DNA of 64,000 bases, from positions 9,041 through 73,040 of the forward strand of contig CAMDJM010000015.1 of the NCBI GenBank assembly GCA_945900785.1. Direction: 5' to 3'. The notes beneath the pieces are model-generated. The model had not been told where the DNA came from. It saw nothing but the letters and a program-made list of their open reading frames with translations, and made no database searches. This document shows positions 8,058 to 42,821 of this stretch, in pieces; position 1 is the first letter of the stretch; each line of letters starts with the position of its first letter. Both the position numbers and the translations under genes were made by a program. Source of the stretch: Akkermansia muciniphila (GTDB taxonomy: Bacteria > Verrucomicrobiota > Verrucomicrobiia > Verrucomicrobiales > V1-33).

Positions 8058-8643
8058 TGGGGCCATGGGATGTTCCGGTTGAATACCACACCCTTGCCTC
8101 CTGCGGGCTGGCGATGTAGAGCTGCATCTGCCTGACAAAGTGGCGGTCCTCGGTCCCTGCTGCCTGCTGCGGCCATGCCATGACCTTCCTGCACGCCCTG
8201 CGCACCCGCGCCCGGCCCCGCCGCTGCCACCGACAAGCTCCTGCGCCATCCCCATCCCCGCATGAAGCTGTCACCCACCTATCGAATTTCTGGCCAGCCG
8301 GTCATAACGTGATCAAAATCCGTCGGACCCCGGCCCTGGTGGATCGTGCCCTGAGGCCACGGTTTTTGTCTTTTTGTCCTTGAAAACCAGACCCCGCCCC
8401 AGCTTCCACGCATCAGCAGAACCCGGTCTCTTAGTCACGTGGGCGGTCATAGCCCCCTTCCGCCCGTCCAGCCTGATCCGATGGAATCAATAACCGGATT
8501 TAACTGAGGAAAAGCGACCGGAAACTTTACCCACTCACGCCCCGGCCACAAACCGGTCCTGAACCGGACCCTGCACCAAGGCCAACCGCGAATCGTTCAA
8601 TAACCGTTATCATCGGGGCTGCGCCCGATGATCACCATGGTCA

Positions 8644-37178: not shown

Positions 37179-37637
37179 TCAGGTCCGCCGGGTCGCCGCC
37201 CGCAGCAGGCGGTCGGCCGCCAGATGGCCGGCCCCGCAGAAGCAAATGGCCGCACAGGCCCCGGCCAGGAGCAGGGCTGACTGCACCACCTGCGGATGGT
37301 GGCGGTAAAGCAGAGCCGTGATGACGCAGATAGAGCCCATCAGCACCGCACTAAAACGGGTGAGAAGACCGATCGCGATGGCGAGGGCGGAAAGGAGGAC
37401 GAGTAAAACGAGGCTGACCGCCAAGGGAAAAGGCAAAGGAAACCCAAGTGCAGCCAACTGTCCGGGAAGTTCCCATCCGGTTTTTTGCCAGATGTTGGAC
37501 CAGGCGGCCGGCAACTCCCTTGCCAACTGCCAGTAAAGCAGGCTCCCGCCCACGGTGATTCTCAGGATCAGCAGGCCGATCTGACGGCTGACCGGGGAGG
37601 TGACGGCGGTGGGGGCGCGGGAGTATTGGAAGGGCAT
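37179..37637 (-). CDS. DoxX family membrane protein
   Basis: GLLILRITVG...LGFPLP...IGLLTRFSA...GAGHLAAD. Confidence 0.78.
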   Translation of the reverse strand: MPFQYSRAPTAVTSPVSRQIGLLILRITVGGSLLYWQLARELPAAWSNIWQKTGWELPGQLAALGFPLPFPLAVSLVLLVLLSALAIAIGLLTRFSAVLMGSICVITALLYRHHPQVVQSALLLAGACAAICFCGAGHLAADRLLRAATRRT

Positions 37638-37701
37638 GAGCGGTGCTTCAGGCGGGAGGAAAGCAGGTTCCCTGGGCTTTACAAATGAGGCCCGTCCATT
37701 T

Positions 37702-38145
37702 CTAACCACCCCCACGGGCCTTGGCGTCATTTCGGGCAGCGCGCGACCGGATTTCGATCCAAGCCGGTCCTCCTGCGGCATCAAAAAGAGGGGTGAGATG
37801 CAGTTGGTGGTCCTGAGCGAGGGACCAGAGGAGTTGCCGGCGGGTCATGGCGATCTTGTCGATGAAAATGCTGGGGTTTTCCACCGGAGGCTGAATGACC
37901 CGGTAATTAATGCCCCGGAGGGCGGGCTCGTTGTAAACCTGTTTCAGCGGCACATCGAAAATCTGAACCCGCACCGAGCTGTCCAGCCATTGATTCAGCG
38001 GATCATAGCGGGTGAACAGAAACTCAGCCGGGACGACCGCCCATTTATCCGCCGCCTGATATTTGGGTTTGGGATCGAGCAGGCCGCAGGAGGCGACTGA
38101 AAAAAGCAGCAGAGGAGCCAGCAGGCGGGCGGGATGGAGCATCAT
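37702..38145 (-). CDS. hypothetical lipoprotein
   Basis: Lipobox VASC after hydrophobic N-terminus. Confidence 0.7.
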   Translation of the reverse strand: MMLHPARLLAPLLLFSVASCGLLDPKPKYQAADKWAVVPAEFLFTRYDPLNQWLDSSVRVQIFDVPLKQVYNEPALRGINYRVIQPPVENPSIFIDKIAMTRRQLLWSLAQDHQLHLTPLFDAAGGPAWIEIRSRAARNDAKARGGG

Positions 38146-38445
38146 AGAGGAAATAGGAATAGGGAGTATTCACCGCTCCGGCAGGGACGGGGCAAGGGAG
38201 GAAATTGGAAAGTCTTCCCCTTTGACTGCCGTAAACGGGGAATGTTGAATAAAATCGCAGGAACCGCAAATTGACCCACATAAAAGAGGCAGAATGATGG
38301 GAAAAGTAGAATTTCAGATGAATAAGAAATCTTATTGAAGTTGACAAGTTAAAGATGAGACGCAAATCTGGATGCCAATAAAAACCGGGGATGCGCAGGG
38401 GAAATGAATTCATCATGACTCCGGCAGCTTTTCCTCCAGACCGCC

Positions 38446-41400
38446 ATGGCATCATTTTTCAAAAACCTGTTCCGCAAAGAAGGGGAAAGCCAACCAGTTC
38501 CGGCAACTCCCTTGGCGAATGATTTTCCGGGCCGGGGGCAGACTGGACCCTTTGTCCCAGCGGCCCAGGCAGGTCCGCTGACGGCGGGAGTCCCCAGGGG
38601 GACCGGGCCTTTTGCAGTGGTGACAGGACGGCAGATGACGGTGCGGGAAATGGCGGCCCTGCTGCCGCCAGGTTTGTTGCGGTTTGATGCCGTCAGTCCG
38701 GAGCAGCCCGTGGCTTTGCCCTTGGAGGAACTGCGGCAAACTCTGGCTTCCGGCCGGCCTTCGCTGCGTTTGTCCCGGATTTACGAGGCCTGTCCGGCTC
38801 TTTTCCAACGTCCCCCGGCACCTGGGGAAGATTTAGAGGTAACCTTTCCCTTGGCCAGAGTCCGGGGGCTTTTAGAAAACTCCAGTCCCATCGCCCCGGT
38901 GCCTGCGGTCAATCCTTTCGCCTCCATTCCCAGGGCGGGCTTGCCTCCGGCAGGAGCAACCGCCTCCCCCTTTGGGTTGGCTGGGTCGCTTCTGCCAAGT
39001 GCTGCCTCTCCTGGAAATCCCTTTGCTCCAATGATGAATGCCGCTGCCTCCGGTTTGCCCATCGCTCGTCCCGGCATGCCGGTGGCGCAGGAACAGCCCC
39101 AGCCCTTTCCAGCGGCACCTGTGACTGGCTTTCCCTCCGCGCCTCCCGCGTCCTCACCCGCCCCAGCGGCTGTGGCACCCTTTGCGGTGGCGGCAGCGGC
39201 CCCCGGTCTTCCCGCCGCCCCCTCTGCTTTTAGCCCGGCGTCCCCAGCGCAAGCCAGCCCGGCTCCCGCCCTGCCACCCGGGCCGCGTTCGACCCCCGTG
39301 CCTTTTGCCCAAAGTGCCGGAAAGCAGCCCGCCTCCCACAGCGGGGCTCCCCATTCGCCCTTTTCGGTCATCAATCCTCCGGCAGCGACGGCTCCTCCTG
39401 CCGCCTTTGTTCCTGCGGGCAATCCCCTGCCCTCGCCCTTTACGGTGCGGGCCAGCGCACCTGTGCCTGCGCCAGCCGCCTTCCAGCCCGCAGCCCAACC
39501 CCGCACCTTTCCCGTGCCGGTAGCCCCTCCTGCCATGAATGGGCGGCCCGAATCCATCAAAACCTCGCCCCGGCCGGACCGGGGCTCCCGCTTTTCCACC
39601 CAGCCAGTGCCTTTGCCGGTGCAGGCGCAGACCGCCCCTCCGGTCACCCAACCCGTGCCCCCGCCGGCAGCCCTCCCCGTTTTATCTTTTCCTTCTTCCT
39701 TCCAAAGCATCACCGCGCCTGTGCCGCCAACCGATCCAGTCCTGCCACCTGCCGCAGCTCCGGCAATGCCTTCGCCGTCAGCGCCCGCCCCGGCCCAGCC
39801 GGCCGGTCCCGCTCCAGCGATGGCTTCCACTCCCGCAGTTTCCCTGCCGGATGCCACCCCTCCTGCCACTGACGCTCCAGCCGGCTTCCTGGAGGAATCC
39901 ATGGAGGCAACAGCCGAATCCATGGAAATGAGCCTGCGGGCCGTCCTGCGGAATGCAGATCCCGCCCTGTTGGGATTTGCCCCGGAAAATGTGCCGGAAG
40001 CCGTCAGGATCAGATTCCCCGTCGCCCAGATCGCTCCCCAACTGTCCAAAGGCCGCGTGGTGGTGTCTATTCCTCAAATTTGTCAGGGGATTCCGGAAAA
40101 ATTCCGTCCCGCCTTTGCCCGCGCCTCAACCGGTATGACCATCGTGGTGCCGATGAGTGAAGTCTTCCACAATTTGCCGGAGTCCGCCCGTCCGTCCATG
40201 GAACCGGCCGCGCCAGCGGATGCCCATCAGCCGATTACGACCAGCCCATTCCAAACTCCATTTGTCATCCGTGCCGAAGACGAGCCCGGCAAACAACTGC
40301 TGGACCTGAGTGTCACTGGATTCGACAAATCAAACGTGCGGCAAGCCCGCCCAGCCACTCAACCCGTTGGGCCTGTGGAACTGCCGCATGCCCCGCTTCC
40401 TCCCGTGACCGTGGATGGTGGTGCCCCCACCGTCCAGGTCGATTTGCCGCCGCTCCGCCCTGCTGGCATGATGGCCCCCGCCGAAACGCCGTTGGCTGCC
40501 CCACTCACCCGATCCGGTATGCTTTCGCGCCCCCCCGGCAGTGGCACTGGCCCCAGCCCAGGCGCAGCAATGCGGACCGCCCCGGCGGTGAAGCCGGTGC
40601 CCCCCTCTGCCAGTGCCGTGCGCGCCTTTCCGAAACCCGCTATGCCTCCCGACAGGAGGATCGTCCCTGTGGTTCCGCAACTCCCCCCTGCTTTCCCCGT
40701 CTCCCCTGCTGGGGGCGCTCCCCCCCTGACGCTGCCCCGGCCCGTTCAGGCGGCTCCGCCACCTGCATTCACCCCGCATGGGTTGGACCTGGGCCCGGCA
40801 TCTGCGGCTGTCCTGGCCAACGCCTCCCCTGCCAGGCCGGGAGCGGATCCCACGGATGACCTGGGGGAATCCTTCTCCGCCGCACGCCTCGGCACGGAGC
40901 CCCCTCCCCGCGCGGGTTCAGCCCCCGTCAGCCGGCCAGCTTTTCCCCTACCCGGCAACCCGCCGCCCCTGGCCGCAGGTCCCGCTGCGCCGCTACCGAC
41001 GCCGGTGGCTCCGTTCGCCGCCAGCCCAGCGCCATTGGCTCCACCCGTCTGGCCTCCAGTCCCGCCTCGGGCTGCGGCATCCGGTTTGAATGGCAAGGCA
41101 TCGGCCACCATTCCTAAACTGGCAGCGCCCTCTCGGCCAGCTGCGGCAGGATCTGCCCTGCCTTCCCCCGCGCCACGCGCCCCCCAGGACCTGCCTACGG
41201 GCCAATTCGAGGATCTCAGCTTCGGCTGCCAACCCGACCAACAGCAAATCGTCCTGCGCGCCCTCTTTGGCACTGACCGAACCTTCACTCCCCAGGATGT
41301 CGCCGACGCCTGCGCAACACTTCCCGGCCTGAAAGCCTGTGCGATTCTAAGTGAAGGTCTTCCCCTGGTGAGCGGCGGACTGCCTCAAGCCGAAGCCTCT

Positions 41401-41625
41401 ACCTTCCGCGACAGCGTCGCCAGGACCCGCGAATCCCTCTCCTCCCTGGCAGAATCCATGGGCTTGGGCTCCGGAGGCAATTTCACGCTGCGCACCGATC
41501 AGGGTGTGCGCTCCTTCTTCCTCGACTCCGGCCTCTGTCTTGCCGTCTGGCATGACCAGCCGCTCTTCTCCGGCGGGACCCGGGAAAAACTGATCCTCAT
41601 CACCCAGGAACTGGCAAAACTCTGA
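38446..41625 (+). CDS. large Pro/Ala-rich protein with duplicated unknown domain and C-terminal roadblock/LC7-like domain
   Basis: 1059-aa ORF in operon with mglA/mglB-like genes; C-terminus CATLPGLKACAILSEGLPLVSG...FTLRTDQGVRSFF...CLAVWH...KLILITQELAKL fits roadblock topology. Confidence 0.8.
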   Translation: MASFFKNLFRKEGESQPVPATPLANDFPGRGQTGPFVPAAQAGPLTAGVPRGTGPFAVVTGRQMTVREMAALLPPGLLRFDAVSPEQPVALPLEELRQTLASGRPSLRLSRIYEACPALFQRPPAPGEDLEVTFPLARVRGLLENSSPIAPVPAVNPFASIPRAGLPPAGATASPFGLAGSLLPSAASPGNPFAPMMNAAASGLPIARPGMPVAQEQPQPFPAAPVTGFPSAPPASSPAPAAVAPFAVAAAAPGLPAAPSAFSPASPAQASPAPALPPGPRSTPVPFAQSAGKQPASHSGAPHSPFSVINPPAATAPPAAFVPAGNPLPSPFTVRASAPVPAPAAFQPAAQPRTFPVPVAPPAMNGRPESIKTSPRPDRGSRFSTQPVPLPVQAQTAPPVTQPVPPPAALPVLSFPSSFQSITAPVPPTDPVLPPAAAPAMPSPSAPAPAQPAGPAPAMASTPAVSLPDATPPATDAPAGFLEESMEATAESMEMSLRAVLRNADPALLGFAPENVPEAVRIRFPVAQIAPQLSKGRVVVSIPQICQGIPEKFRPAFARASTGMTIVVPMSEVFHNLPESARPSMEPAAPADAHQPITTSPFQTPFVIRAEDEPGKQLLDLSVTGFDKSNVRQARPATQPVGPVELPHAPLPPVTVDGGAPTVQVDLPPLRPAGMMAPAETPLAAPLTRSGMLSRPPGSGTGPSPGAAMRTAPAVKPVPPSASAVRAFPKPAMPPDRRIVPVVPQLPPAFPVSPAGGAPPLTLPRPVQAAPPPAFTPHGLDLGPASAAVLANASPARPGADPTDDLGESFSAARLGTEPPPRAGSAPVSRPAFPLPGNPPPLAAGPAAPLPTPVAPFAASPAPLAPPVWPPVPPRAAASGLNGKASATIPKLAAPSRPAAAGSALPSPAPRAPQDLPTGQFEDLSFGCQPDQQQIVLRALFGTDRTFTPQDVADACATLPGLKACAILSEGLPLVSGGLPQAEASTFRDSVARTRESLSSLAESMGLGSGGNFTLRTDQGVRSFFLDSGLCLAVWHDQPLFSGGTREKLILITQELAKL

Positions 41626-41675
41626 CTCACCCGCTCTTCAGCCTTCCGCCCGCCGCCCGCCGCCCGCTCCCACCT

Positions 41676-42305
41676 ATGGCCGTGATCAACCACGATACCC
41701 GCGAGGTTTCCTTCAAACTCGTGTATTGCGGGACCCCCATGGGGGGGAAGACCACCAACCTCAGCTTCATTCATAGCCGCCTGGGGGCAGATCACCGGGG
41801 CGACCTGGTGGCCCTGGCGGCGGCCAATGACCGCACCCTCTTCTTTGATTTCCTGCCGGTGCACACCATGGTCATCAACGGCTACCATACCAAATTCATG
41901 CTTTATACCGTGCCTGGTCAGGTTTGTTATAACGCCACCCGGCAGATGGTCCTGCGCGGGGCGGATGGCATCGTCTTTGTCGCCGATTCCCAGCTCGACC
42001 GCATGGAGGAAAACCTCACCGCCTGGCAGGGCATGCAACAGAACCTGGCCGACAACGGCAGCTCCTTCGCCGATCTGCCCGCCATCCTCCAATTCAACAA
42101 ACGGGATCTTCCCGGCCCGGCCCCCTTCGCTTATATGGAGTATTTGCTCAATTCCGGCCCCCGCCGCCTGCGCGTCTTTGAAGCCGCCGCCAGCACCGGA
42201 GTCAACGTCTTCGAGACCCTCAATGCCCTCGCTCAGGAAGTGCTCCAGCGCTTCCATCAGGGCACCCAGCCCGCCCCTGCCACCACCCAGCCCGTTCCTG
42301 CCTGA
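41676..42305 (+). CDS. mglA: MglA-family small GTPase
   Basis: INHDTREVSFKLVYCGTPMGGKTTNL (G1), DRTLFFDFLP (G2 with Arg), LYTVPGQV (G3), DGIVFVADS, NKRD (G4). Confidence 0.92.
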   Translation: MAVINHDTREVSFKLVYCGTPMGGKTTNLSFIHSRLGADHRGDLVALAAANDRTLFFDFLPVHTMVINGYHTKFMLYTVPGQVCYNATRQMVLRGADGIVFVADSQLDRMEENLTAWQGMQQNLADNGSSFADLPAILQFNKRDLPGPAPFAYMEYLLNSGPRRLRVFEAAASTGVNVFETLNALAQEVLQRFHQGTQPAPATTQPVPA

Positions 42306-42317
42306 CACTCTTCCACC

Positions 42318-42821
42318 ATGGATTCCCTCACCACCTATTCCGGCCGGGTTCTGCAACTTGGGGGAGGGCTGTCGCAGCAGTTCCGGCAGATCCTGGCGGG
42401 TTATGTGCAGGAGTCCGAAGTCCGCTACGCCGCCCTGCTTGAGGAGAGTGGCACCATCTGCGCGGATGCGGGCGACCCTGCCCTGAGGGATTCCGGCGAA
42501 ACCGGTGCCTTGGCCGCCGGAGCCTACGCGGCCCTCCAAGCCGTCGCCCAGCGCCTCGGGGACGGCACCTTTGAAGGCCTGTTCCACGAAGGAAAAGCCC
42601 GCCAATTCTGCCTCACGCCCGTTTCCCCACAATTCATGCTGCTGAGCGTCTTTGAAGCCCCCGTCCGGTTTGCCATCGTCAAAGCCTGCGCTTCCAAAGC
42701 CATCCTGCGCCTCCAGGGCCAGATCGAGACCATGCCCATCGCCACCCGCAGCACTGCGCCCCCCGTCCGCCCTGCCGGCGATTTCTCCTTCGAAGCCACC
42801 GCCCTCTTCAATCAGGCATGA
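42318..42821 (+). CDS. mglB: MglB-family roadblock/LC7 protein (GAP-like)
   Basis: AALLEESGTIC...ALAAGAYAALQAVAQRLGDGTFEGLFHEG...LLSVFE; adjacent to mglA. Confidence 0.85.
   Translation: MDSLTTYSGRVLQLGGGLSQQFRQILAGYVQESEVRYAALLEESGTICADAGDPALRDSGETGALAAGAYAALQAVAQRLGDGTFEGLFHEGKARQFCLTPVSPQFMLLSVFEAPVRFAIVKACASKAILRLQGQIETMPIATRSTAPPVRPAGDFSFEATALFNQA

Follow-up and report, generated by a model that had tools for sequence, protein, structure and literature searches.

What does a large Pro/Ala-rich protein do when its gene stands directly in front of an MglA/MglB polarity switch? The question is raised by a locus at positions 38446 to 42821 of a 64,000-nucleotide stretch of DNA (the window) from a Verrucomicrobiales genome labelled Akkermansia muciniphila, where three genes encode a scaffold protein, the small GTPase MglA and the roadblock protein MglB. 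MglA and MglB themselves, second roadblock proteins and roadblock fusions are already known; what is new is this variant of the MglA/MglB system. The explanation that best covers the locus as a whole, held with moderate confidence, is that the scaffold is a dedicated membrane-bound third partner that would hold MglB, place the MglA switch and steer type IV pili. Its N-terminal helix likely binds the inner membrane, and by analogy with MglC in Myxococcus its C-terminal roadblock likely holds MglB. One site in the cell would be cleared of MglA-GTP, leaving type IV pilus motors to work at other sites. Two copies of a further domain, here called R, would serve as repeated interaction modules, either for self-association or for the capture of MglA or pilus-motor partners via short Phe motifs. 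The least certain step is the pilus output in the order to which the source genome belongs.

The three genes are as follows.

38446..41625, + strand: scaffold gene, 1059 aa, in the order amphipathic tip, R1, Pro/Ala linker, R2, Pro/Ala linker, roadblock
41676..42305, + strand: mglA, group-1 small GTPase, 209 aa, with R53, T54, TVPGQ/Q82, NKRD and Pro21
42318..42821, + strand: mglB, roadblock protein and presumed GTPase-activating protein (GAP), 167 aa, recognised by Robl_LC7 and by likeness to M. xanthus MglB

A first-pass annotation made from the sequence had described three same-strand genes with short gaps, and the open reading frames, their coordinates and the gaps (50 bp from the scaffold gene to mglA, 12 bp from mglA to mglB) are all borne out. 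It had also recognised an MglA by its G1-G4 motifs and the arginine in DRTLFFDF, an identification that holds. The source MglA, whose length falls inside the 150-240 aa range for single-domain group-1 GTPases, matches Myxococcus xanthus MglA over residues 1-196 (phmmer E 5.8e-55) and is in register over the first ~160, including G1, DRTLFFDF (R53), TVPGQ and NKRD. Across 44 aligned MglA proteins, R53, T54 and V79-Q82 are invariant; an intrinsic Arg finger beside the G2 Thr and the TVPGQ motif are marks of group 1 (PMC4316618). The MglA/MglB pairs of M. xanthus and Thermus thermophilus (PDB 6h5b, 6izw, 3t12) share the intrinsic Arg53, TVPGQ and a coupled roadblock MglB with the source; the source differs in that its mglA-mglB pair lies behind a third, large gene and in that Pro21 replaces Gly21. 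Further accounts of the wider MglA/MglB module are given in PMC13408092 and PMC9481161.

Position 21 of MglA is Pro in 19 of the 44 aligned proteins, the source included, Ala in 13 and Gly in 12. Pro21 occurs in all 18 rows of the clade that holds the source MglA (support 100/99, long stem branch) and in one other row. The G21V substitution in MglA, equal to Ras G12V, blocks MglB-stimulated hydrolysis (PMC2910265). H-Ras G12P is non-transforming and is described as catalytically competent (PMC6662853), and because of that description Pro21 MglA may, by analogy, cycle with less dependence on a GAP. The source MglA lacks Gly21, a residue counted among the membership marks, and is treated as a variant rather than excluded.

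MglB consists of one Roadblock/LC7 domain, and its gene follows mglA directly, inside the four-gene limit for a coupled MglB. It reaches Robl_LC7 at E 7e-10, above the Pfam cut-off, and M. xanthus MglB at E 3e-7, which agrees with its earlier description as an MglB-like roadblock protein; against a Thermus-specific NCBIfam model it falls under the cut-off (41.9 vs 200 bits). In M. xanthus, a D/E-rich C-terminal helix of MglB pairs with lysines of MglA alpha-5 in an allostery resembling that of guanine nucleotide exchange factors (GEFs) (PMC6785124). The C-terminal extension of the source MglB has a conserved Phe and only two acidic residues, and the matching alpha-5 positions of the source MglA are N/Q, so that, judged from the residues, this pair is not clearly conserved. 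Two observations concern other mglB copies. The mglB genes of L061-L063, downstream of mglA, are short and divergent, apparently without the first helix or mis-delimited. The source assembly also has a truncated 3' copy of mglB (G000:C70:22238-22559; L026 ~8240-8560) that is 82% identical, with an internal deletion and a frameshifted tail, beside what looks like a type I restriction-modification island. Since DNA runs X2 and X3 contain the same junction, the copy is probably a genuine pseudogene remnant.

The scaffold protein had been described as a 1059-aa, Pro/Ala-rich, disordered chain tipped by a roadblock. Its composition (19.6% Pro, 17.1% Ala) and its roadblock end agree with that description; the remainder is not linker alone, for it contains two further folded domains, R1 and R2. 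Conservation over 20 homologs is concentrated in discrete islands along the Pro/Ala-rich chain. Single-sequence Pfam and NCBIfam scans of the protein and its parts gave no match. The parts of the scaffold are listed here; the N-terminal helix, the two ~95-aa R repeats and the conserved linker motifs were absent from the first-pass annotation.

38446..38478, + strand: basic amphipathic helix, aa 1-11, predicted to target the membrane (hydrophobic moment 0.69, net +3)
38620..38901, + strand: R domain copy 1 (R1), aa 59-152, by homology to copy 2 and a profile match
39910..40206, + strand: R domain copy 2 (R2), aa 489-587, four beta-alpha units predicted by AlphaFold, negative in family and fold searches
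40231..40272, + strand: Phe-containing tail motif that follows R2 (aa 596-609), a conserved island
40852..40932, + strand: acidic-aromatic motif, aa 803-829, a conserved island within the second linker that may serve in binding
41245..41622, + strand: divergent Roadblock/LC7 domain that has an additional helix at its N-terminus, aa 934-1059, by profiles and predicted fold

The C-terminal domain is roadblock-like, as had been proposed. As a single sequence it matches no Pfam family; among 36 aligned homologous C-domains, 18 match Robl_LC7 (best E 1.2e-7). The C-domain profile reaches the solved roadblock 7f8f at E 1.8e-11, and comparison with the MglB family alignment shows homology (hhalign 95.9%). 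An AlphaFold model (pLDDT 93.4) is predicted to have the roadblock fold of helix, beta-hairpin, long alpha-2, three strands and helix. Foldseek ranks roadblocks in all of places 1-10 for this model, and VIA-align superimposes it on 3kye with Z 11.7 and rmsd 3.0 over 114 aligned residues. The fold also matches MP1-p14 and the C-terminal domains of Rag GTPases in the Rag/Ragulator system.

This second roadblock could act on the switch directly, as the first-pass annotation had suggested, either in a Ragulator-like heterodimer with MglB or as a second GAP or GEF on MglA. We consider this quite unlikely. The MglB dimer receives MglA on its two-helix (alpha-2) side (PMC10329633), and on alpha-2 MglB keeps small residues: G68 in 38/43 proteins, A72 in 42/43 and A/G/S at 71 in 37/43. 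The scaffold C-domain lacks this small-residue docking face of MglB-type GAPs, since across the 36 domains the positions matching G68 and A71 are mostly Q/R/K and R/D/K/E, and Pro is frequent on the same helix face. In group-1 systems with two coupled roadblocks, moreover, the second falls mostly in the MglC clade (PMC4719450). MglC binds MglB and has no GAP activity (PMC10329633, PMC4719450). The missing helix face, together with a search that found no separate MglC-like or other intact roadblock in the source genome (86% complete), makes an MglC-like adaptor more likely than a GAP on present sequence grounds. Direct likeness to MglC is weak (profile E 0.29; Z 8.1, rank 49), and the C-domain differs from MglC, a stand-alone roadblock that belongs to the MglB_orphan1 clade, in being fused to a 930-aa N-terminal region and coupled to mglA.

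In M. xanthus, MglC is a second roadblock that links MglB to the disordered polar protein RomR (PMC10329633). There, a non-GAP second roadblock and a long disordered polar protein serve MglB as separate molecules, and the source has both elements in one chain. The scaffold is not a RomR, however: it has neither a receiver domain nor a Glu-rich C-terminal helix, but carries R domains and a membrane helix instead and ends in a roadblock. Roadblocks also form the C-terminal module of larger proteins in HGbRL of Methylacidiphilum and in receiver-roadblock fusions (PMC4476040, PMC4316618). In known fusions the partner is a globin, a receiver or a GTPase, whereas here it is a set of R repeats in a Pro-rich linker; HGbRL, unlike the source scaffold, is encoded outside the mglA operon. 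The ZnR-GYF region of GltJ (PMC11135422) was considered as an analogue and set aside, there being no ZnR or GYF match in the scaffold. No description of the R domain or of the scaffold was found in the literature covered, which took in open-access papers, the supplements of PMC4316618 being outside its scope.

The N-terminal helix would provide the attachment. Basic amphipathic helices of this type bind membranes. Among 1049 windows in the scaffold protein, residues 1-11 rank top in hydrophobic moment, and the same amphipathicity test is passed by 64 of 192 homologous N-termini, a set that takes in fragments and uncertain starts, against 0/192 internal control windows. The helix is therefore predicted to be a membrane anchor, and likely is one, which fits the idea of a polar landmark put forward in the first-pass annotation.

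Another reading would couple the switch to DNA, either in uptake through pili or at the nucleoid. A ComEA-like helix-hairpin-helix (HhH) precedes the roadblock in 6/6 other-class scaffolds scanned and in 6/10 selected representatives. The source scaffold has no HhH match, its close relatives consist of R and roadblock domains only, and its N-terminus by inspection lacks anything like a signal peptide, unlike periplasmic ComEA. That the scaffold couples the switch to DNA is thus very unlikely.

The two R domains are copies of one ~95-aa domain (hhalign 96.7%, E 3.8e-10), a repeat visible only by profiles, as pairwise BLAST between them is marginal (E 0.016). An AlphaFold model from a 59-sequence alignment (pLDDT 88.2, pTM 0.74) predicts four beta-alpha units. 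No clear match was found in any of the collections searched: any one Pfam family is matched by at most one of the 59 members, the best hit among PDB sequences has E 0.59 with nothing below, Foldseek gives no match at E<=0.001, and the best of 48,161 chains in VIA-align reaches Z 2.5 (rmsd 3.1, 57 aligned), well under the 7-8 that VIA-align reports as typical for unmatched models. Only 6 of the 48,161 chains reach Z>=2; four of them, at Z 2.1-2.5, are small ribosomal-subunit chains and were taken as noise. The ESM Atlas returns unnamed Verrucomicrobiota clusters only, below 0.9. Because Pfam, PDB, Foldseek and VIA-align give no clear match, the modelled R domain is possibly a new fold, though it may still belong to a known family.

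R is also a candidate new domain family that would be large and uncatalogued. At E<=0.001 it matches 2074 clusters (50% identity) among 1.84 billion representatives. Among the best 143 new representatives, 129 combine a roadblock with 2-4 R copies; a further two carry seven R copies, and the remaining 12, many of them apparently truncated, show R alone. One of the seven-copy proteins, P0053, has N-terminal hydrophobic segments and, by eye, roadblock-like C-terminal segments; the other, P0056, resembles RomR in its layout, having a receiver domain and a disordered acidic region of great length besides its copies. The linkers beside the R domains hold conserved motifs. Of 428 R domains, 180 are followed by a Phe motif related to that behind R2, at an almost constant distance, against 24/418 control windows; the pattern was picked by eye after inspecting the sequences. 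The acidic-aromatic island at aa 803-829 has a mean identity of 66% among 20 homologs.

The association of the scaffold with mglA extends across the phylum. An MglA scan yielded 25 loci, 17 from Verrucomicrobia and 8 from other or unassigned groups. In all 17 Verrucomicrobia loci the scaffold lies directly upstream of mglA and mglB downstream, and in the other 8 no R or C-domain match was found. Those eight (L018-L025, MglA outside Verrucomicrobiota) include several in 360-690-codon frames that suggest C-terminal extensions, and nearby MglB was not matched. In an evenly drawn sample of 401 Verrucomicrobiota genomes, MglA occurs in 30, R in 33 and both in 29; R is found in 4 of the 371 genomes without MglA, and one MglA genome has no R match. 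Across 29 further MglA loci of the phylum (source excluded), 22 have an R gene within ~6 kb, 10 of them directly upstream on the same strand and 12 divergent or one to two genes off. In the other seven, R lies elsewhere in the genome in six, with a roadblock behind it and one copy broken by an assembly gap, and one has no match. The large gene is thus linked to mglA in related genomes, as the earlier annotation required. Neither 151 genomes of a Myxococcota sample nor 5 non-Verrucomicrobiota MglA genomes gave an R match.

Two points weigh against reading this association as dedication to the switch. The co-occurrence is partly circular because the R profile was derived from mglA-linked loci, which make up 22 of the 29 genomes with both, and related genomes are not independent; the independent part of the test consists of the 367 genomes in which neither was found and of the six copies away from mglA. 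In a single family, four genomes (G020, G056, G146, G299) have R and no MglA match, with R beside unrelated genes, so R can exist without the switch. These stand-alone R proteins (L086-L089) are ~140-200 aa long and are encoded upstream of a GDSL lipase gene. Such cases, four of 33 R genomes, and the single MglA genome without R would suit a merely historical linkage between an ordinary MglA/MglB pair and an unrelated neighbour. We regard that as highly improbable: the association is kept in different orientations across classes, unlinked scaffold copies are present in MglA genomes, and the scaffold itself carries an MglB-type domain.

The system had been proposed as one of the Planctomycetes-Verrucomicrobia-Chlamydiae (PVC) group. 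The Verrucomicrobiota part of that proposal stands, all the genome evidence coming from this phylum; the wider PVC part does not, Planctomycetota and Chlamydiota not having been searched. A 2014 survey reported group 1 MglA in other phyla and only group 5 in Verrucomicrobia (PMC4316618). In the MglA tree, which has a small outgroup and long branches, a 100/99 branch separates the 44 Verrucomicrobiota rows from the 8 outside rows, a split consistent with inheritance within the phylum. Homologs of the scaffold occur in Prosthecobacter fusiformis, P. debontii, P. dejongeii, P. algae, Brevifollis gellanilyticus and Verrucomicrobium sp., where the annotation reads hypothetical or, from JGI, roadblock-family regulator. 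One locus labelled Akkermansia muciniphila (L007) has an MglA inside the clade of the window, yet MglA is found in 0/31 genomes of the order's largest sampled family; this organism label may be wrong.

The genes around the locus bear on what the switch controls. A scan of 68 neighbouring proteins from the 29 phylum loci found a PilB-type ATPase gene directly upstream of the scaffold in L057, L059 and L060 (gap 27 bp in L060), one adjoining mglB in L071, and PilT adjoining mglA in L072. MshEN or PATAN (DUF4388) proteins flank 8 more loci, giving pilus-type neighbours in 13/29. Of the 30 genomes with MglA, 25 also have PATAN, against 7 of the 371 without. PATAN regulators bind PilB and PilC in the cyanobacterium Synechocystis (10.1101/2021.06.11.447907), and MglA-linked homologs flank many mglA-scaffold loci outside the source order, a neighbourhood noted earlier for group-1 mglA (PMC4316618). 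MglA drives pili via SgmX in M. xanthus (PMC11580455). In having pilus-motor genes near the locus, the relatives of the source resemble the M. xanthus and T. thermophilus module. Type IV pili are inferred as the output because PilB, PilT and PATAN genes so often adjoin the locus in other orders, and these neighbourhoods point to pili rather than to the budding or prosthecae suggested by the first-pass annotation. Elsewhere in the source genome there are genes for two PilB-like ATPases together with pilC, genes for PilT-family ATPases, and the pilus cluster Amuc_1098-1101.

Several results count against pili as the output in the source order. The pilus genes of the source genome discriminate little because such genes are presumably widespread in the phylum. 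PATAN was found in none of the 5 MglA genomes of the order, the source included, and these are exactly the five MglA genomes without it; the source scaffold has no PATAN domain either. A neighbour combining TPR and MshEN was not found in the order, and its family is not MglA-specific, being carried by 90/401 genomes of the phylum. No pilus gene appeared among 35 neighbours scanned at 12 loci (35 of 169 candidate ORFs). The close-clade neighbours scanned (11 loci) had neither pilus genes nor PATAN, the sole PATAN being at L014, outside the clade. The neighbours of L058 and L061 are neither pilus nor PATAN proteins.

The TPR-MshEN family (L057:1420-2271, L069:6615-7385, L084:5782-6654) is often near pilB or mglA and was not found in the Verrucomicrobiales searched. 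It was considered as a dedicated SgmX-like effector and rejected, in view of its spread through the phylum and its absence from the source genome.

In Verrucomicrobiales the scaffold could instead serve an asymmetry of cell shape or division, such as a prostheca or budding site, having given up an earlier role in pili. This fits the homologs in Prosthecobacter spp., Verrucomicrobium sp. and Brevifollis, the failure to find PATAN and TPR-MshEN partners in the source order, and the well-supported, long-stemmed MglA clade with Pro21 throughout. It is nonetheless unlikely: the family spans many orders of the phylum, many of which are not known as prosthecate; the neighbours outside the source order are pilus motors; and no shape or division gene was seen among the neighbours scanned.

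A bolder version, doubtful as a whole, would make the scaffold a one-chain landmark for Ras-like polarity. It would be a membrane-tethered multivalent scaffold merging the roles of RomR and MglC, and its R domain, a new fold, would bind short Phe motifs and assemble with itself to form a patch at the pole. The Verrucomicrobiales version would have lost its coupling to PATAN/pilus signalling and would work with a Pro21 MglA that, like Ras G12P, switches with little or no GAP stimulation.

The remaining features concern the layout of the locus.

38146..38445, no strand assigned: AT-richer divergent intergenic stretch, presumed promoter region, by GC content

As the first-pass annotation had noted, this divergent region is AT-rich, with 45.7% GC against 61.7% for the window. 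A promoter and terminator scan was at chance level, with one sigma-70-like site at 38271-38298 against 0.5 expected. A single RNA run with a small share gave four short contigs, none bridging a gene junction; co-transcription of the three genes is plausible from their spacing. On the - strand lie a small lipoprotein-like gene (37702-38145, no Pfam match) and a DoxX-like gene (37179-37784), which are likewise upstream in the closest relatives; no connection to the MglA module was found. In one clade only, mglB is followed by a same-strand MotA/TolQ/ExbB gene (L012:2760-3455, with matching ORFs in L013, L015, L016 and L017). Gliding in M. xanthus uses a TolQR-like motor.

The placement of MglA/MglB has been worked out for Myxococcus only, and even there the anchor of RomR is still unknown (PMC10329633). 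The preferred reading, a membrane-bound third partner that holds MglB and places the switch, makes this locus a candidate source of a positioning protein for MglA/MglB in a different phylum. The Pro at the Ras-G12-equivalent site of its MglA is a natural substitution. The R domain offers a large uncatalogued family that is modelled with confidence and for which searches gave no structural neighbour; its stand-alone proteins suit structure work. Homologs occur in cultured strains of Prosthecobacter, Verrucomicrobium and Brevifollis, which opens polarity in Verrucomicrobiota to experiment.

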